Shown here piece after piece: positions 1,140-34,559 of a stretch of DNA of 64,000 nucleotides. This stretch comes from Enterobacteria phage KhF2. The position numbers and the translations under genes were made by a program. The stretch is taken from sequence record KT184314.1, one strand, 5' to 3'. Position 1 is the first letter of the stretch. Every line of letters begins with the position of its first letter. The notes under the pieces are model-generated. The model did no database searches, was not told where the DNA came from, and worked only from the letters and a program-made list of their open reading frames with translations.

Positions 1140-1697
1140 TTACTTTCTCAGTGGATGAATAAAGAATGCCAACATAACTCTTTCCCTTGAGAATGCTCTT
1201 TCTTCTGGGACAACACTTTTTAGTTTCCATCCAATATAAATTCTCCAGTAAAACTGTTTACCAAAGACTTTAATTGATGGGATAAAGGCGAATAATCCCC
1301 AAGCATTACTGTTCCACATTAGGAGATAACCAGTCTGATTATCTTCAGGGTCAGAACTTACGTTGATATTACCTTTCCACTTAGTAACATCTTTTACATC
1401 TCTTCCTAATACATGGTAAGAGAAGTTATAAGCTTTGTTTCTCCAGAGCCATCCGACTCTTTGCATGTAGACGCCTAGTTTACCAATCCATCTAATATTA
1501 GCCCATCTTTTAACGTGACCTTCATCACCATCAATTGGGTTGTCATATGTCTCCATCCATCTGAACCCGAAAGGTAAGCGTCCTTTCTTCTCACTGTAGA
1601 ATGGAACTACAAAAGGTGCTAAGATAACTGCTAAGATTGCTGCAAATGGCTCTAACAAAGCTAAGAAAATCCATGAAACATATTTTAAGTATCTCAT
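1140..1697 (-). CDS. hypothetical membrane protein (185 aa) embedded in tRNA array
   Basis: ORF track; hydrophobic N-terminus; start overlaps stop of upstream ORF (ATGA). Confidence 0.45.
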   Translation of the reverse strand: MRYLKYVSWIFLALLEPFAAILAVILAPFVVPFYSEKKGRLPFGFRWMETYDNPIDGDEGHVKRWANIRWIGKLGVYMQRVGWLWRNKAYNFSYHVLGRDVKDVTKWKGNINVSSDPEDNQTGYLLMWNSNAWGLFAFIPSIKVFGKQFYWRIYIGWKLKSVVPEERAFSRERVMLAFFIHPLRK

Positions 1698-1936
1698 TGT
1701 CTAACCCTCGTAAGGAGGTAAGCATTATTATTTGTTTCTGAGCTTTCTGGTAACATTGTCTCAAAATTGACGCTTTTAAGTTGTCTTCCACCAAAGCAAT
1801 GACCAATAAATCTTTCTACTTTTATTGGGTCGCATTCCCATCCGACTTTCAAGAAAATGTGGGTATCTATAGTGGGAACCCTTACAAACTCAATACTATT
1901 GGGATTTTCATGTTCAACGACGATTAATGTTTGCAT
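1694..1936 (-). CDS. hypothetical protein (80 aa)
   Basis: ORF track; translationally coupled to 1140..1697. Confidence 0.4.
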   Translation of the reverse strand: MQTLIVVEHENPNSIEFVRVPTIDTHIFLKVGWECDPIKVERFIGHCFGGRQLKSVNFETMLPESSETNNNAYLLTRVRQ

Positions 1937-1954
1937 AAATTCCTCTTGCTTATC

Positions 1955-2030
1955 TGGCGCAGGATAAGGGATTCGAACCCCTATTAACAGCTTCGTAGAC
2001 TGTTGCTCTATCCATTTGAACTAATCCTGC
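1955..2030 (-). tRNA. tRNA-Arg (anticodon ACG)
   Basis: Acceptor GCAGGAT/ATCCTGC, anticodon stem ACAGT/GCTGT with loop CTACGAA, T-loop TTCGAAT, CCA encoded. Confidence 0.6.
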
Positions 2031-2035
2031 AAAAT

Positions 2036-2113
2036 TGGTGTTCCAAGACGGATTCGAACCGTCACTAGTACAAGGTTTGAGCTTGCATCCTCTGCCAATT
2101 GGGATACTGGAAC
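2036..2113 (-). tRNA. tRNA with anticodon CAA (Leu by anticodon) but class-I-like short variable loop
   Basis: Acceptor GTTCCAG/TTGGAAC with A73; anticodon stem GCAAG/CTTGT with loop CTCAAAC; only a 6 nt variable region. Confidence 0.45.
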
Positions 2114-2114
2114 A

Positions 2115-2193
2115 TGGTACTCACTAAAGGACTTGAACCTTTTTCTTCATCTTGTAAGGGTGATGTTTTACCATATAAACTAAGCGAGTATGA
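2115..2193 (-). tRNA. tRNA-Val (anticodon TAC)
   Basis: Acceptor ACTCGCT/AGTGAGT, D-stem GTTT/AAAC, anticodon loop CTTACAA, A73, CCA encoded. Confidence 0.55.
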
Positions 2194-2195
2194 AA

Positions 2196-2283
2196 GAGGT
2201 CTGGAGTTGTGCCGCTAACTCAACTCCGTGGAATTTGTTACGGTCTTCAGTTGACTCAAAGCGGTCTTTCACTTGACCTCTGA
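2196..2283. ncRNA. structured RNA candidate / non-canonical tRNA-like element
   Basis: Closing stem GAGGTC...GACCTC plus internal hairpins (GGAGTTG...CAACTCC; CCGT...ACGG); no canonical T-loop found. Confidence 0.25.
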
Positions 2284-2285
2284 AT

Positions 2286-2362
2286 TGGTGCTGCTCACAG
2301 GACTCGAACCTGCATTTCCATCCTTACAAGGGATGTGTAATAGCCAATTATACGAAAGCAGC
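2286..2362 (-). tRNA. tRNA-Thr (anticodon TGT)
   Basis: Anticodon stem CATCC/GGATG with loop CTTGTAA; T-loop TTCGAGT; CCA encoded. Confidence 0.6.
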
Positions 2363-2368
2363 ATTGTT

Positions 2369-2443
2369 TGGAGCATCCAGAGGGAATCGAACCCTCAACC
2401 TCAGTTTGGAAGACTGTAATTTTCCCGTTTAAACTATGGATGC
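2369..2443 (-). tRNA. tRNA-Gly (anticodon TCC)
   Basis: Acceptor GCATCCA/TGGATGC; anticodon loop CTTCCAA; T-arm GAGGG-TTCGATT-CCCTC. Confidence 0.6.
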
Positions 2444-2449
2444 ACTAAT

Positions 2450-2526
2450 TGGTGGAGAAGCAGGGAATTGAACCCTGTACTTAAGTTTGCAAAACTTATG
2501 TTTTAACCATGTAAACTACATCCCCA
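2450..2526 (-). tRNA. tRNA-Ala (anticodon TGC)
   Basis: G3:U70 wobble pair in acceptor stem (Ala identity element); anticodon stem TAAGT/ACTTA with loop TTTGCAA. Confidence 0.6.
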
Positions 2527-2531
2527 ATGTC

Positions 2532-2607
2532 TGGTACAGGTGGAGGGAATTGAACCCATCGTCTTACTGATTAAGAGTCAGCCGCATAACCATTTTGCTA
2601 CACCTGC
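2532..2607 (-). tRNA. tRNA-Lys (anticodon CTT)
   Basis: Acceptor GCAGGTG/CACCTGT; anticodon stem GCTGA/TCAGT with loop CTCTTAA; T-stem only 3 clean pairs. Confidence 0.5.
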
Positions 2608-2614
2608 ATTAATT

Positions 2615-2692
2615 TGGTAGGAGACAAGGGATTCGAACCCTCAAACACCAACTTCTAAGGATGGTAGGTTTACCAATTACCATCAATCTCCC
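2615..2692 (-). tRNA. tRNA with anticodon TAG (Leu by anticodon), short variable loop
   Basis: T-arm GAGGG-TTCGAAT-CCCTT; anticodon stem CCATC/GTTGG (one mismatch) with loop CTTAGAA; A73. Confidence 0.4.
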
Positions 2693-2948
2693 ATTAAATC
2701 TTTTTAGAGAACTTCTAAGAACCTGAGCAACAAGGTTCCACAACAAGCGACTAATAACCTTAGAAGCCCTCTAAAAAGACCTAAATAGGTCTTTGCATAG
2801 TCTTGTTTAATCCGGTGACTAGAACCTTTGGAGAGCTTGATATTATCTCTTCTCCGTGACACCTACTAGGTGCTTTGACAGTGTACGACAATACACGAGG
2901 GATAAACCGACAATGCGAACAAGCATGGACGGAGTAAATCTTATTAGG

Positions 2949-3036
2949 CGGTAAGTAAAGGAGTCGAACCCTCACCGTATCTCTACAGTGGCAACTGTTT
3001 TCAAGACAGTTTGGCTACCATTAGCCGCTACCTACC
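2949..3036 (-). tRNA. tRNA-Ser (anticodon TGA), class II with long variable arm
   Basis: 88 nt; acceptor GGTAGGT/ACTTACC, G73; anticodon stem ACTGT/ACAGT with loop CTTGAAA; long extra arm; CCA not encoded. Confidence 0.55.
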
Positions 3037-3049
3037 CCTAATAAGACTT

Positions 3050-3132
3050 TGGCATGGGACGGAGGAGTTGAACCCCTTTGAAACGGTTTTGGAGGCCGTT
3101 GCTCATGCCTTAGAGTCTTAACATCGTCCCAT
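3050..3132 (-). tRNA. tRNA-like, possible Trp (anticodon CCA), atypical 5' region
   Basis: Good T-arm and acceptor ATGGGAC/GTCCCAT with G73; anticodon-like stem-loop ACGGC-CTCCAAA-ACCGT; about 7 extra nt between acceptor and D-arm. Confidence 0.3.
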
Positions 3133-3274
3133 ATTATAATTCGAAGCTTACCCTGTTATCTCAACACTGTCAAGCTTCTTCTCAGATTATTTACATGTTC
3201 TGGAAAACATGAGATACAGACCACCTCCCTACAGGAAGACCCGCTAAGGCCGTCTAAGTAATCTGCTAACTATT

Positions 3275-3356
3275 TGGTCGAGGCGGCAGGACTCGAACCC
3301 GCATACTCCACTTACTCGGTTAACGGCGGTTTAGAAGACCGCTGAGATACGCCCCG
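3275..3356 (-). tRNA. tRNA-like, possible Arg (anticodon TCT), atypical architecture
   Basis: Acceptor CGGGGCG/CGCCTCG, T-arm GCGGG-TTCGAGT-CCTGC, perfect stem-loop GCGGT-CTTCTAA-ACCGC; D-arm not identifiable, 23 nt between anticodon arm and T-arm. Confidence 0.3.
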
Positions 3357-3604
3357 TAATTATCTTTAAAGACTCTCTTAGAAAGCCCTTAAAGATGCCC
3401 ACCTTATTAATCATACCGTGGGCGAGTACGCCAAATTCTTTAATGAGGGATTGGAAGACCTCACTGGTGTTTAGCCTATCAAGCTACTGCCAGAAAAACA
3501 TTGTCGTTTGCATTTATTTTAAATTTGCAAAATAGACGCTACGCAACGAAAACTAAGGTTACTATAAAGCAGTCACATCTCAATGTCAACAACTTTATTG
3601 AAAT

Positions 3605-3838: not shown

Positions 3839-4035
3839 ATTAAATTATCTTTGTAGATAAGCTACCCAGACTTGCTTAAGGTCTGTAGCGATGTGCCTTG
3901 TTGGGTTTAAATCTAGAATTTACCCTTTCACCCTTTGTGGTCGCATACTCACAGGTAAGCTTAATAACTTATCTACAAAGATAATTACCAGACCGTTGTT
4001 TATCATCTTAAGTGCTACCATTACACCAACTCGAC

Positions 4036-4063
4036 ATCTGCCGAGTGAAGGAATCGAACCTTC
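4036..4063 (-). pseudogene. tRNA 3' fragment (T-arm plus acceptor 3' strand without a matching 5' half)
   Basis: GAAGG-TTCGATT-CCTTC T-arm followed by ACTCGGC-A; no complementary 5' acceptor strand within 100 nt. Confidence 0.25.
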
Positions 4064-4270
4064 GCCTTTTCTTTACCGGAGAAATAGATTGTTTAAGTTT
4101 TGCTGTAAACGGTCTTCTGTAAATTTGTTGAGCCAGACCAAGTTTTAAATTTTTTCAAAATTAAATTGGCTTGAAATTTTCATACGTTCTTGATGTATTT
4201 GGTCTTCTGCTCCTTTAAAGAATACTCGTAAGAACTCTTTAAGGGAGGGGCTAAATAGCCCTCTCAAAAT

Positions 4271-4525: not shown

Positions 4526-4602
4526 TTAATACATTGCCAGACCGTGTTTTTTCTTTTATCCGCAAAAAGTATTTTGTTGCTGAATACGGTCTTCTGCAAA
4601 AT

Positions 4603-4679: not shown

Positions 4680-4768
4680 ATTCTTAATGACCAGACCAAA
4701 TATCTTCTTTGTCCGATTAACTTTCAGATGAGTAGATTAAGTTTGCTGTAATTGGTCTTCTGTCAAAA

Positions 4769-5096: not shown

Positions 5097-6512
5097 TTAC
5101 CAGATGTAACGGTCAATCATTACTGCTTTGAGCATTACGCTGATTGGGTCAAACTTCTCACCACCAAGCAGAGCTTTTAAAGTGGCTGGAGAGAAACCAG
5201 ATACCATTGCTACACCGTTATCCTTAACAGACACTTCGCAAGTACCACTACGGTTTGCTAAGTACCAGAATACCAGTTGTGGCATTTCGTATCCAGCTTT
5301 TTTGTACTTACTACGAATTGCTTCAAAGTTTGTACGACCATTTGCACCGTCAACCTGATTGAACTCCATATCAGAGAAGATGATAAGCTTACTTGGCATA
5401 TCTTTCTGAGTCAAGTTGTTTCTCTTACCTGTCTCAAGGATGCGGTCAAAAGCTGCTTGTAAGTTAGTTGAACCGTATTCAACATGTCGCATTACTTGAC
5501 GGTGACGGTTCTTTAAATCGCCACTCAGTTCGATGAAATGAGGGTTTGTTGAATAAACCATTAACTCGTTCTTAAAGCAACCTGTATTGCGTTCTGCTAC
5601 ATACAAGGCAAGTGATACACCAATATCAAGGGCAGTAATTGAGCCAAAATTCACCCAAGACATTGAACTTGAAACATCAGACATACATAGAATGTTTTCA
5701 CCCTCTGCCATCCAGTTTGGTAGTGCTTTCCACTGCTCATTAGCAACATCTGCATTACCATACTTAACAGATTTAATCACATCGTATGGGTAAACAGCAC
5801 CAGCATTAATCTTAGCCTCACCCTTTGATAATGACTCGATGTAAGCTTTGTAGCGTTCTCCATCTTTACGGTTAAACAGTTTTTGGTAACGTGCAGCAGC
5901 AAGTGAAGGAATCTTACTGTAGTCAATCTTACCAAACTCATTAGCAGAGATTTTTTGCTCAACTGTATCAGATAGTGCAGACAACAGTGTGCGGTACTCT
6001 TTCTCACTTAAGTTTGCAAACTTGCAGAAACGTTTTACAAACTGCTTATGACGTGGTTTGACTCGTGGTAACCACTTAGCTGCCAAACCTGCTGTTGCAG
6101 GGTCTAGTAATGCTGCTTCTAAATGTTTGAAGGCATCTGTCTCGAAACGAGTACCTACGAAGATTTTGAAGTCATCAAAACGACCAAGTTCTGCAATCTT
6201 ATCCATAATACGAAGAACCTGTGTAGGCTCTAAAACTTTGTCTTCGATTGCTTGAAGTAAAACAGTTCGGAAAGCTTTACGCTCACCCATACCTTCTCGT
6301 ACATCTCGCATATGCAGTAAAATACGAACTGCAACATCAACACCCTCACGCAAAGCTTTGTAGAACAGGTCTGGTAAGATTTCTACATTGCTACGGCTTG
6401 AACCAGCAGCTTTGTAAAAGTCTACCAGAGCAGACATTGATGAAGTATGGTTTACAGCACCATTTTCAGTTCGACCTGCATGAAGGTGCGCATGTTTAAA
6501 TAATTCGCTCAT
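5097..6512 (-). CDS. vWA-like domain protein (putative MIDAS motif D-x-S-x-S)
   Basis: 471 aa ORF; motif LCMSDVSSSM resembles a von Willebrand A metal-ion site; no other recognisable motif. Confidence 0.4.
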   Translation of the reverse strand: MSELFKHAHLHAGRTENGAVNHTSSMSALVDFYKAAGSSRSNVEILPDLFYKALREGVDVAVRILLHMRDVREGMGERKAFRTVLLQAIEDKVLEPTQVLRIMDKIAELGRFDDFKIFVGTRFETDAFKHLEAALLDPATAGLAAKWLPRVKPRHKQFVKRFCKFANLSEKEYRTLLSALSDTVEQKISANEFGKIDYSKIPSLAAARYQKLFNRKDGERYKAYIESLSKGEAKINAGAVYPYDVIKSVKYGNADVANEQWKALPNWMAEGENILCMSDVSSSMSWVNFGSITALDIGVSLALYVAERNTGCFKNELMVYSTNPHFIELSGDLKNRHRQVMRHVEYGSTNLQAAFDRILETGKRNNLTQKDMPSKLIIFSDMEFNQVDGANGRTNFEAIRSKYKKAGYEMPQLVFWYLANRSGTCEVSVKDNGVAMVSGFSPATLKALLGGEKFDPISVMLKAVMIDRYIW

Positions 6513-7376: not shown

Positions 7377-7591
7377 AAATCGCAGATATTATAGATTTAT
7401 ATCAAACTGCAAAGAGTCATGGCTATATAACCTCAATTGGAAAGAATAGTCACTATGATGCTTTGACTGGAATGTATTTCAGGGCAATGGCTCAATCTAG
7501 TGAACAACACTTAATGGTTTCTTCCAGTGAGTTTACTTCGTTTCTCTATTGCAGCAAAATTATAAATCGCAGGAGAACTGAAAAATGTTAA
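7358..7591 (+). CDS. hypothetical protein
   Basis: ORF track; GAGG RBS. Confidence 0.3.
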   Translation: MCSSQLEIADIIDLYQTAKSHGYITSIGKNSHYDALTGMYFRAMAQSSEQHLMVSSSEFTSFLYCSKIINRRRTEKC

Positions 7592-8175
7592 CAGTAAGTT
7601 TTAATTACAATAGTGATGGCTCTGTATCAATTAATTCACCATATGCAAATGACCTTCTTAAAGAGCTAGTCAATCAGTGTGATAGAGGTCTTCACTATGT
7701 TCAAAATTCTTTTAAACAGAAGACTATTGCTAATAACTTGATGCGTGTAACAGTGACGCCATCGAATCCAAATTATGACTTTGATAGTGAAAGTCCGTAC
7801 TCATTAGTTGCGCTTGGAGAGAGCAGCCAATTCAAACTTGTTTGCCACGACTCAGAAACATTTCTTAAGGTATTTTCCAACCTTATCCATAATAATAAGT
7901 ACAGCTACGTTGATGGTAGTGTAAACTTCTATCCAGCAAACTATACATGTTTGTTGGTTGATAATATGAGAAAAAGTAAGCAAGAACCTACAGAAATTTC
8001 ATTTGATGTGAACTCTAGTCCAGACGCAGAAACAAGTAAGAACTTCGATATGAGTTACGCATTGTCACTCAGTAAGAAATCCGAGTTCATTGATTATGTC
8101 AATGGATTTGGTTTTAAGTTTGATGAGAGTATGAATCTTAAAAAACTTAAGAACCTACTTAAGACCAAAGCTTAA
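7585..8175 (+). CDS. hypothetical protein
   Basis: ORF track; AGGAGA RBS; followed by hairpin GGGGCtgatGCCCC. Confidence 0.5.
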   Translation: MLTVSFNYNSDGSVSINSPYANDLLKELVNQCDRGLHYVQNSFKQKTIANNLMRVTVTPSNPNYDFDSESPYSLVALGESSQFKLVCHDSETFLKVFSNLIHNNKYSYVDGSVNFYPANYTCLLVDNMRKSKQEPTEISFDVNSSPDAETSKNFDMSYALSLSKKSEFIDYVNGFGFKFDESMNLKKLKNLLKTKA

Positions 8176-33662: not shown

Positions 33663-34559
33663 TTAATCAAGGTTTGCTACAGTAACTTGGCTATAATGTG
33701 TTAAGCCACGGTCTTTAGCTTCCCCTAAAGAGTTTGTAGTGTAGATATGGTCAATACCATTGTCAAGCAAGTTTTCAACATCTTTAGAGAAAATACCATG
33801 AGTTACATAGAGTTCCACACGTTTTGCACCTGCTTCACGAAGATGTTTGGCTGCTTCTATGAAGGTTCGACCTCCATCACAAATATCATCCAGAATCATG
33901 ACAGTTTTATCTGTCAAATCAACATCGTCAAGGATTCGCATACCAGTAATTTCACCAGTCTTAAGGTTACGCACCTTAGACATTGTGATGTATGGTTTAT
34001 CCACCTCTTTAGCAGTCTCTGCAATCTTCTTAGCAGCACCTGCATCTGGGGCTACTAAGTAATCAATCAGTGGGTCATTTGCGTAGTGAACTGCAATCTC
34101 CTTTTGAGGAATACTCTGGAAGCAGTTAAACAGGTTATCTGGAACGTAACTGTGAGGGTCAACTGCACAGACTGCACCAAATCCCATTGCATTTACCTGT
34201 TTAGCAAAAACCTTTAAAGCTGCTGCGTCGCCTTTAAACATGTGACGGTCATAACGTGCATTTGGTAAGTAGTAAAAGATGACAGTCTTTAAAGCATAAT
34301 CATGAGGAATTAAATCATCAATTGCTTCTTTAGCAAGTGCCACAGCAAACAATGTATCCTTATCATAACCTTTTACAATCATAATCACATTGTTGATGGA
34401 TGATGCTGCATAAGCAGTGAAATCAACAAACTCTGGCGAAAAGTGTCCACCAATCTCACCAGAAGGAAATTGGATGATGTTAAACTCTTCTTCATGAGTT
34501 CCTTTAGTTGGTGAATGAACTGTAACACGGATAGATGTTTTCATAGTTTTCTCTCTCAA
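33663..34559 (-). CDS. ribose-phosphate pyrophosphokinase (PRPP synthetase)-like protein
   Basis: PRPP-binding signature VMILDDICDGGRT; 298 aa. Confidence 0.6.
   Translation of the reverse strand: MREKTMKTSIRVTVHSPTKGTHEEEFNIIQFPSGEIGGHFSPEFVDFTAYAASSINNVIMIVKGYDKDTLFAVALAKEAIDDLIPHDYALKTVIFYYLPNARYDRHMFKGDAAALKVFAKQVNAMGFGAVCAVDPHSYVPDNLFNCFQSIPQKEIAVHYANDPLIDYLVAPDAGAAKKIAETAKEVDKPYITMSKVRNLKTGEITGMRILDDVDLTDKTVMILDDICDGGRTFIEAAKHLREAGAKRVELYVTHGIFSKDVENLLDNGIDHIYTTNSLGEAKDRGLTHYSQVTVANLD

Follow-up and report, generated by a model that had tools for sequence, protein, structure and literature searches.

Phage transfer RNA (tRNA) arrays are now regarded as counter-defence toolkits. At the end of the tRNA cluster of phage T4 lie the genes of two small stable RNAs, rnaC and rnaD (species 1 and 2), which are matured alongside the tRNAs and are non-essential; to our knowledge no function has been ascribed to either of them. 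In bacteria, the 3'ETS-leuZ sponge and RtT RNA are functional small RNAs that arise as by-products of tRNA-precursor processing. Here we report on an RNA gene of ~85 nucleotides (nt), hereafter the element, that occupies the gap between the genes for tRNA-Thr and tRNA-Val in a 64,000-nt stretch of DNA from Enterobacteria phage KhF2 (sequence record KT184314.1); this whole stretch is referred to as the window. By sequence and by fold the element lies outside every described RNA family; its kind, that of non-tRNA small RNAs in phage tRNA clusters, is already known.

Theta ribozymes have been reported at the 3' ends of phage tRNAs, and their hepatitis delta virus (HDV)-like architecture is a nested double pseudoknot of P1, P1.1, P2, P3 and P4 with a catalytic C opening J4/2 (PMC10879173). 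YrlA and other Y RNAs are defined by permuted T, AS and D arms and by a Ro-binding motif, GNCGAAN0-1G or CGAA, in a bulged closing helix (PMC4201824; PMC12135203). The PhageMaP preprint describes gp130 of the Felixounavirus Bas63, the product of a gene directly upstream of the tRNAs, as similar to Ro60 and suggests that some of the Bas63 'tRNAs' may be Y RNAs (PMC11482910).

The element resembles rnaC and rnaD in being a non-tRNA RNA gene in a phage tRNA cluster and on the tRNA strand. However, rnaC bears a canonical GGGUUCGAAUCCC T-arm, whereas the element lacks one and is organised around a pseudoknot. A covariance model trained on 13 variants of the element (R1) found nothing at T4 rnaC/rnaD with filters off, and its one weak match in the T4 locus was located outside them and on the other strand (9.8 bits, E = 2.7). 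The 3'ETS-leuZ sponge and RtT differ from the element insofar as they pair with targets or are repeats, and the element has no match to RtT. Felix O1-like phages, the group from which the window comes, are classic typing and therapy phages, and about 260 sequenced genomes bear the element unannotated.

The element and its place in the tRNA array

The window belongs to a Felixounavirus, and ARAGORN and Rfam place 23 tRNA genes in its first 5 kilobases (kb), all of them on the minus strand. One gap between two of them is occupied by a genuine, conserved gene, whose product is a pseudoknotted RNA of ~85 nt and not a tRNA:

2196..2280, minus strand: the whole element, ~85 nt, matched by covariance model R1 with 113.8 bits
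2286..2362, minus strand: tRNA-Thr(UGU), upstream in the RNA sense, with its CCA end 5 nt ahead of helix P1 of the element (ARAGORN, Rfam)
2115..2189, minus strand: tRNA-Val(UAC), downstream in the RNA sense, with its 5' end (the RNase P site) 6 nt past P1 (ARAGORN, Rfam)

A preliminary description of this DNA had placed the element in the slot between the same two tRNA genes, and the ARAGORN coordinates agree with that placement. The gaps of 5 and 6 nt that separate the element from its neighbours are comparable to the 1-8 nt spacers at most other tRNA-tRNA junctions of the array. A scan for transcription signals found no minus-strand terminator-like sites near the element and placed sigma-70-like sites further upstream in the array, e.g. 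at 3589-3561 on the minus strand, which taken together is consistent with co-transcription of the element and the flanking tRNAs. The minus-strand RNA folds with -29.4 kcal/mol (z = -3.8), and none of 200 shuffled sequences folded as well; the plus-strand fold gave a z of -3.0.

Among the 4227 models of Rfam 15, no family matched the element at the gathering score, at E<=10 in a search of 1.4 kb, or at E<=1 in a search of the whole window. The sole overlapping match, to snoR101 on the opposite strand (15.8 bits), is noise, and ARAGORN called no tRNA at 2190-2285. Annotated relatives leave the slot of the element empty, and a few GenBank records have a 'hypothetical protein' drawn over the region. 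These searches with Rfam and tRNA models and with ARAGORN, which the preliminary description had proposed, thus returned no match. Since conservation and covariation show a real and undescribed RNA, as set out below, the missing family match does not refute the element.

Secondary structure and covariation

Alignment A4 comprises 21 distinct haplotypes of the element, over which a pairing model of four helices gives 441 pair cells. RNA positions are numbered such that position i equals 2281 minus the window coordinate. In the 5'-3' direction the RNA reads GAGGUC AAGUGAAA GACCGC UUUGA GUCAACUGAAGAC CGUAACAAAUUCCAC GGAGUUG AGUUAGCGGCA CAACUCC A GACCUC, and its parts are as follows:

2275..2280, minus strand: 5' strand of P1, GAGGUC (RNA 1-6), partner of 2196-2201
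2267..2274, minus strand: A-rich joining strand AAGUGAAA (RNA 7-14), connecting P1 to the pseudoknot strand
2261..2266, minus strand: 5' strand of the pseudoknot, G-A-CCGC (RNA 15-20), partner of the P3 loop, with G15 and C17-C20 paired
2256..2260, minus strand: unpaired, variable linker (UUUGA / UGGU / UUGA / UUGG; RNA 21-25) with a 1-nt indel
2229..2255, minus strand: near-invariant core GUCAACUGAAGACCGUAACAAAUUCCA, 27 nt (RNA 26-52), which contains the box CUGAAGACC
2243-2255, minus strand: candidate mini-hairpin GUC-AACUGAA-GAC inside the core, 3 base pairs (bp) with a 7-nt loop, in which GUC/GAC never varies
2203..2227, minus strand: P3, a 7-bp hairpin of GGAGUUG (2221-2227) and CAACUCC (2203-2209), RNA 54-60 with 72-78, with an 11-nt loop at 2210-2220
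2211..2215, minus strand: 3' strand of the pseudoknot, GCGGC, within the P3 loop (RNA 66-70), 99% of cells paired
2202..2202, minus strand: single bulged A between P3 and P1 (RNA 79), an invariant column in A4
2196..2201, minus strand: 3' strand of P1, GACCUC (RNA 80-85), 98.4% of cells paired over the 21 haplotypes

Standard pairs filled 99.3% of the 441 cells, and pairing dropped to about 40% when the partner columns were slid by one. Compensatory changes on both sides were seen at four pairs, and none of 500 shuffles attained the observed values. Three helices are supported, namely the 6-bp P1, the 7-bp P3 hairpin and the 5-bp pseudoknot between the P3 loop and a 5' segment. P3 was never broken in the 21 haplotypes (100% of its cells paired), and four of its seven pairs vary (G-C/G.U/A-U; A-U/G-C/G.U; U-A/U.G; G-C/G.U). 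In P1, pair 3:83 is G-C, changing to U-A in the clade of the Avunavirus Av-05 and to G.U in contig L196. At pseudoknot pair 19:67, 19 haplotypes have G-C, L213 has G.U and L190/L191 have A-U, a path seen in independent metagenome contigs; at pair 15:70 the Av-05 clade has A-U and the others G-C, except for A.A in L195. An alternative nested fold (RNAalifold) is broken in four haplotypes and is a weaker model than the P3 fold.

The closing stem (GAGGTC, 2196-2201, with GACCTC, 2275-2280) and the 7-bp hairpin (GGAGTTG, 2203-2209, with CAACTCC, 2221-2227) are located where the preliminary description had put them, and both show compensatory changes in relatives. The 'further short stems' mentioned there resolve into the 5-bp pseudoknot (GACCGC, 2261-2266, with GCGGC, 2211-2215) and a possible 3-bp mini-hairpin. 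One P3 pair is G.U in 15 of the 21 haplotypes; because G.U wobbles in P3 are A.C mismatches on the plus strand, the functional RNA is the minus-strand transcript. The earlier view of a structured element in a tRNA-sized slot, rather than a spacer, is thus upheld, with the functional strand corrected to minus. We are highly confident that the minus-strand product of the element is a structured RNA containing P1, P3 and the pseudoknot.

The same substitutions bear on the plus strand, where a 28-codon open reading frame (ORF) runs from an ATG at 2190 to a TGA at 2274-2276. It could be hypothesized that the region encodes this peptide, or that it functions only at the level of DNA, and the few GenBank records with a 'hypothetical protein' would agree with a coding role. 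However, relatives have GTG or have lost the start (TTTAAA), the 1-nt linker indel shifts the frame, and the substitutions preserve RNA pairs, including G.U pairs that are workable only on the minus strand. The linker indel and the lost ATG exclude the 28-codon ORF, and we assign a negligible probability to this alternative as a whole.

With respect to the overall shape of the RNA, its 3' 20 nt would form a continuous strand, GCGGC-A-CAACUCC-A-GACCUC, that pairs in turn with the 5' strands of the pseudoknot, P3 and P1. This arrangement predicts a quasi-continuous stack of 5+7+6 bp with two single bulged A's, spanned by the AAGUGAAA strand and a 33-nt loop. The joining strand AAGUGAAA may run along P3, or its GUG may pair with CAC at 2228-2230; its UGAAA is conserved, and the Av-05 clade has AAUGAAA plus CAU replacing CAC. 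The core GUCAACUGAAGACCGUAACAAAUUCCA is the same in Ounavirinae and Avunavirus while the remaining element differs by about 16%. It shows three point variants in total among the 21 haplotypes and occurs only once in the window. The linker changes without a partner change elsewhere in the element.

Conservation and distribution

A blastn search with the 96-nt gap between the two tRNA genes returned 261 phage records, 259 of which cover at least 80% of it and 238 of which are at least 95% identical; the further genera Suspvirus and Mooglevirus are among them. When the larger region 1900-3400 was used in a megablast search, 260 phage records matched at 80-99% identity, nearly all of them from Felixounavirus and related Ounavirinae, with E. 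coli, Salmonella, Shigella and Citrobacter as hosts. Within Ounavirinae the identity of the element is 95-100%. A second group of seven records, from unrelated genomes of Avunavirus (Av-05, 19-1-2 and relatives), carries the element at 82-84% identity. R1 found exactly one copy per genome in 56 sources. Beyond Ounavirinae and Avunavirus, no remoter homologue was found by blastn from both clades, by two IMG/VR scans and one metagenome scan, or by R1 on other phage tRNA regions, including Ro60-linked loci.

Between the window and Moogle, SUSP2 and Sf14 the element is 95-98% identical, with the neighbouring tRNAs ranging from 47% to 100%. In the comparison with Av-05, tRNA-Gly (89%) alone is better conserved than the element (84%). 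Judged by these identities, conservation of the element is comparable to that of the tRNAs of the array, and that it is kept as strictly as they are implies that the phage benefits from it. In Av-05 the neighbours differ, with tRNA-Gly upstream and an ORF downstream, and the element is still kept. The array segment of Av-05 is clearly related to the Ounavirinae array (89% for tRNA-Gly and 78% for the DUF7338 protein). It may have been acquired recently, in which case the element in Av-05 might be an orphan.

The DUF7338 protein is membrane-anchored, and its gene lies in the array downstream of the element, at 1140-1697 (minus strand) in the window and at 5598-6140 in Av-05 (L034). A link between the two was considered and rejected, as L171 and IMG/VR contigs of about 120-180 kb have DUF7338 but lack the element.

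Three related marine metagenome contigs of 25% guanine-plus-cytosine content (L207 2280-2351, L212 405-476 and L189 1858-1929) carry AACUGAAGACCGUAACAAAUGCCA, which equals 24 of 26 nt of the element core; the sequence spans the start codon of a small ORF and has no tRNAs nearby. Owing to the start-codon position and the missing tRNAs these contigs were rejected as relatives of the element, and the core match is probably due to chance.

Comparison with tRNA

The element is not a tRNA. All 23 tRNAs called by ARAGORN in the array have a GGTTC-type T-loop, and CCA is encoded in 22 of them, the exception being tRNA-Ser, which ends in CGCC as called. The element contains no GTTCRANYC, in agreement with the preliminary description, where a T-loop was said to be missing. 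It also has no encoded 3' CCA, its tail being UUUCAU, and UUUCAC, UUUAAA, UUCAAA or UACUAU in relatives. It has no D stem, the candidate AAAG/CUUU pairing not being conserved, and no 5-bp anticodon stem, its sole 7-nt loop sitting on the 3-bp GUC/GAC stem. Local alignment against the 25 tRNA and tRNA-like genes of the array stayed at chance level (z<=1.9).

What the element shares with tRNA (RF00005) is size, position and strand; moreover, P1 stacked on P3 recalls the acceptor stem on the T-arm, and the P3 loop pairs with a 5' segment near the position of a D-loop. It is unlike tRNA in that its 13 bp are arranged as 6+7 with a bulged A, in that D stem, anticodon arm and CCA are missing, and in that its 11-nt loop AGUUAGCGGCA makes five Watson-Crick pairs, which replace the T-loop. 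The resemblance is purely topological and does not reflect homology.

Two versions of a tRNA origin have to be considered, a highly divergent functional tRNA, close to one suggestion of the preliminary description, and a decaying tRNA pseudogene. The size and the slot of the element, the 6+7 bp coaxial stack that mimics acceptor and T-arm, and the 7-nt loop AACUGAA on its 3-bp stem would fit the former. However, ARAGORN is silent, as is the Rfam tRNA model at E<=10; T-loop, D-arm, 5-bp anticodon stem and CCA are all lacking, and there is no similarity to any tRNA of the array. The pseudogene version is ruled out by strong purifying selection with compensatory changes. Nor is there a vacancy for a class II tRNA-Leu, which had been thought missing, since the array has three Leu tRNAs (taa, caa and tag). 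A tRNA origin in either version is, in our view, highly improbable.

Possible functions

We tentatively favor the hypothesis that the element is a stable small RNA that, once released by the tRNA-processing machinery, uses its invariant loop to act in trans as a decoy or scaffold. Given a conserved non-tRNA gene with a defined strand and three helices, processing, stability and binding in trans could proceed as follows. An ~85-nt non-coding RNA would be transcribed from the minus strand within a polycistronic tRNA precursor and would fold as a compact pseudoknot. The enzymes that process its neighbours would then release it, RNase P by cleaving at the tRNA-Val 5' end, endo- and exonucleases by trimming past tRNA-Thr, and the paired ends would stabilise the released RNA. 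By means of the near-invariant 27-nt loop it could subsequently bind a conserved factor of phage or host, most likely a protein. The hypothesis draws on the conservation, the covariation, the fold (z = -3.8), the tRNA-like spacing and the precedent of T4 rnaC/rnaD, and it is close to the 'tRNA-like decoy or small regulatory RNA' of the preliminary description. With its maintained pseudoknot and near-invariant 27-nt loop, this conserved non-tRNA RNA can be put forward concretely as a possible new decoy, scaffold or catalyst, and it is easily tested.

Our interpretation should be read with some caution, as several results weigh against it. Most of the variation stems from few lineages, and independent compensatory events are few, with about four double changes. 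L215, a near relative of the element-bearing L195, is without the whole block Thr-element-Val-Leu(caa)-Arg(acg)...Gln(ttg). This natural deletion, at L215 11790-11797 relative to L195 4590-5331, distinguishes two metagenomic Ounavirinae that are otherwise close relatives, and it implies that growth does not require the element, at least in L215. With E. coli ribosomal RNAs (rRNAs), the phage's own transcripts and three host small RNAs alike, the core shows complementarity at chance level or close to it. Finally, a long invariant loop would be equally expected of a ribozyme or of a ligand-binding RNA.

Several pairing partners were considered and rejected. The best antisense site in rRNA, in 23S near the P-loop, reached -33.9 kcal/mol versus -29.1 +/- 2.2 kcal/mol for shuffles, and the paired nt are unconserved in Av-05. 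Among phage RNAs the best site, at 34152-34186 on the minus strand, reached -29.6 versus -21.5 to -28.4 for the best of each shuffle, which is weak, and it lies in the middle of a coding sequence. Mimicry of the 16S decoding-site sequence (UGAAG-CGUAACAA) scored 18 versus a shuffled mean of 18.4. For the three host small RNAs tested, pairing was not significant, with p = 0.45 for MicF, 0.62 for RyhB and 0.05 for RybB, in the last case outside its seed.

The position of the element within the array, at tRNA-like spacing, and its loss together with the neighbouring tRNAs in L215 could also be explained if it acted solely in cis within the precursor, as a structured spacer for guiding or insulating RNase processing or for stabilising the tRNA transcript, and had no function once released. 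However, most other tRNA-tRNA junctions manage with spacers of 1-8 nt, the element is kept in Av-05 although both neighbours differ, and 27 near-invariant unpaired nt as well as a maintained pseudoknot would be left unexplained. We consider a purely cis-acting role quite unlikely.

A compact pseudoknot with covarying helices and invariant joining nt is the usual signature of ribozymes and aptamers, and the element could accordingly represent an undescribed class of self-cleaving ribozyme, or a ligand-sensing RNA, that aids maturation of the adjacent tRNAs. Theta ribozymes at the 3' ends of phage tRNAs provide a precedent and are alike in being structured, pseudoknotted RNAs with an initial G a few nt past the tRNA 3' end (PMC10879173); the element starts with a G 5 nt past such an end. 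Its core sequence CUGAAGA also fits the hammerhead motif CUGANGA. Nevertheless, no Rfam 15 ribozyme or riboswitch family matched even at E<=10, and threading by hand onto HDV-like, hammerhead, twister and hairpin ribozymes gave no fit. An HDV-like nested double pseudoknot is impossible since P1 joins the first 6 and the last 6 nt, i.e. pairs with the extreme 3' end, so that no P4, J4/2 or P2' can follow. The nt two positions ahead of the 3' strand of the element is C or U among relatives, which leaves no conserved J4/2 cytosine. A hammerhead is likewise impossible: CUGAAGA lies at RNA 31-37, but there is no GAAA after stem II, stems I and III are unplaceable, and no match was obtained at E<=10. 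The element further differs from theta ribozymes in lacking the arrangement of P1.1, P2 and P4 and in its hosts, Enterobacteria and not Bacteroidota. In addition, CCA is already encoded in its upstream tRNA, and removal of a 5-nt trailer would remain necessary. We regard catalysis or ligand sensing in aid of tRNA maturation as very unlikely.

Relation to the Ro60-like gene and Y-like RNAs

Directly upstream of the tRNA array, at 5097-6512 on the minus strand, lies an ORF of 471 amino acids (aa) with DUF2828 and DUF7788, assigned to PHROG 850 'RNA-binding protein'. An AlphaFold (AF2) model built on an alignment of 63 homologues reached a predicted local distance difference test score (pLDDT) of 90; the alignment was needed, the single-sequence model having reached a pLDDT of 44. 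Foldseek matched the model over the full length to the Ro60 structures 2i91, 1yvp and 9nfa, to Ro60 of Thermus phage phiLo (9kop, 9l5y) and to Deinococcus Rsr (2nvo), with a template modeling score (TM-score) of up to 0.66. Sequence and sequence-profile searches against the PDB gave no match, so the relationship to Ro60 is visible from fold comparison alone. As judged from the predicted fold, the ORF product is a full-length structural homologue of Ro60 with a TROVE ring and a vWA domain. Homologues occur in 709 phage records, including KVP40, Campylobacter, Listeria and Staphylococcus phages and mycobacteriophages. The homologue of Klebsiella phage FBKp34 is 52% identical and is followed by a match to Rfam YrlA (39.6 bits, E = 2.5e-7); the same search gave no YrlA match in the KhF2 window (E<=1, whole window).

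The region 7520-7920 of FBKp34 (L186), which has the DUF2828 Ro60-like gene on one side and the tRNA array on the other, holds the YrlA-like RNA and also three or four short hairpins of RNA whose boxes read (A/U)GAAG..UACAGCAA, all unannotated.

The array of the window contains four RNAs that resemble Y RNAs and have a common bulged architecture:

4684-4766, minus strand: Y-RNA-like RNA
4532-4600, minus strand: Y-RNA-like RNA
4132-4212, minus strand: Y-RNA-like RNA
about 3988-4120, minus strand: Y-RNA-like RNA with T-arm (4050-4060), closed acceptor-like hairpin and D-arm, in the permuted order of YrlA

All four have an outer stem, an AGA bulge, an inner stem AGACC/GGUCU and a 5' box CAGAAGACC..(U)ACAGCAA, the bulged closing helix being CAGAAGACC...GGUCUGG, and the stem nt past GACC covary between the paralogues (AA with UU, GU with AC). 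The RNA at about 3988-4120 falls below Rfam detection of YrlA. The boxes recur in SUSP2, Moogle, L195 and L215, and in FBKp34 as (A/U)GAAG..UACAGCAA, including around YrlA; no Y-like RNAs were found in Av-05. GAAGACC occurs 15 times in the window versus 6.2 +/- 2.6 expected, mostly in the tRNA array. With a Ro60-like gene and four Y-like RNAs in one array, this phage group is tractable for studies of viral Ro60 particle function.

It could be hypothesized that the element is an accessory to this system, a fifth and atypical Y-like RNA with CUGAAGACC as the box offered to the Ro60-like protein. The Ro60-like ORF lies 2.8 kb upstream of the element on the same strand, in an array with four Y-like RNAs and an enrichment of GAAGACC. 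The FBKp34 homologue followed by a YrlA match and the proposal that Bas63 'tRNAs' may be Y RNAs (PMC11482910) point in the same direction. The box CUGAAGACC in the core agrees at 8/9 box positions, for which we estimate a chance of about 0.01. Like Y RNAs (YrlA RF02553; phiLo Yrl1/2), the element has pairing between its 5' and 3' ends, a topology partly reminiscent of tRNA and a box of the GAAG type.

The distribution of the element does not favor this hypothesis. Av-05 keeps the element with its core unchanged, without Y-like RNAs and without a Ro60-like gene (tblastn, E<=10, whole 121-kb genome). Conversely, a Ro60-like gene is found without the element in L215 (63% identical), L216 (57% identical), FBKp34, KVP40, a mycobacteriophage and hundreds of other phages; in L216, tRNA-Thr and tRNA-Val are 35 nt apart with no element between them. 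Such decoupled occurrence in both directions argues against an obligate link. Moreover, CUGAAGACC is located in the internal loop or mini-hairpin, outside a bulged 5'/3' closing helix, and the alternative fold that would supply such a helix fails in four haplotypes, against none for P3. Unlike Y RNAs, the element has no permuted T, AS and D arms; it has no CGAA motif and no match to YrlA or Y_RNA (E<=10 locally, E<=1 in the whole window). The box in the invariant core is a real lead toward the Y system, yet the occurrence pattern counts against an obligate link, and we consider an accessory Y-like role unlikely.

A broader possibility is that the element represents the first example of a new class of functional RNAs with a compact pseudoknot, borne in phage tRNA arrays, which would be either self-cleaving or ligand-binding, or else a new effector RNA, unlike tRNA, of the Ro60/Y system that Felix O1-like phages direct against host defences; we think this rather unlikely. 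The probability that is left after the explanations discussed here, including the favored release and action in trans, is assigned to functions outside them.

Other features of the tRNA array

At 3278-3356 (minus strand) an atypical tRNA-like gene is matched by the Rfam tRNA model (31.7 bits), with ARAGORN silent. Its acceptor stem is 7 bp long and its T-arm canonical, the variable region measures 23 nt, D-arm and CCA are both missing, and the anticodon-like loop is CUUCUAA (UCU, Arg-AGA). At the corresponding position in the gene order of L195, between tRNA-Ile and tRNA-Ser, there is a normal tRNA-Arg(tct). A second tRNA-like gene missed by ARAGORN, at 3050-3135 (minus strand), has the T-loop GGUUCAACUCC and a CCA end; its sole match is a weak one to tRNA-Sec (23 bits), and its loop CUCCAAA suggests that it may be tRNA-Trp(CCA).

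Two stretches between tRNA genes have features of their own. At 2693-2800 (minus strand), a hairpin with a U-run (AAAGACCUAUUUAGGUCUUUUU) is followed by an imperfect hairpin of ~95 nt just upstream of tRNA-Leu(tag), and this structure may serve as a terminator or processing structure within the array; the ~95-nt hairpin gave spurious matches to microRNA precursors. The 248-nt spacer at 3357-3604 (minus strand) has weak matches to transfer-messenger RNA (tmRNA) and permuted tmRNA (29 bits, E about 0.003, 4-kb search); of all sigma-70-like promoter matches in the region, the best one also falls within it, TTGACA-17-TATAGT at 3589-3561. Finally, the three tRNA-Leu genes (975-1053, 2036-2113 and 2615-2692, minus strand) are 78-79 nt long with CCA, and their variable arms are far shorter than those of bacterial class II tRNA-Leu.

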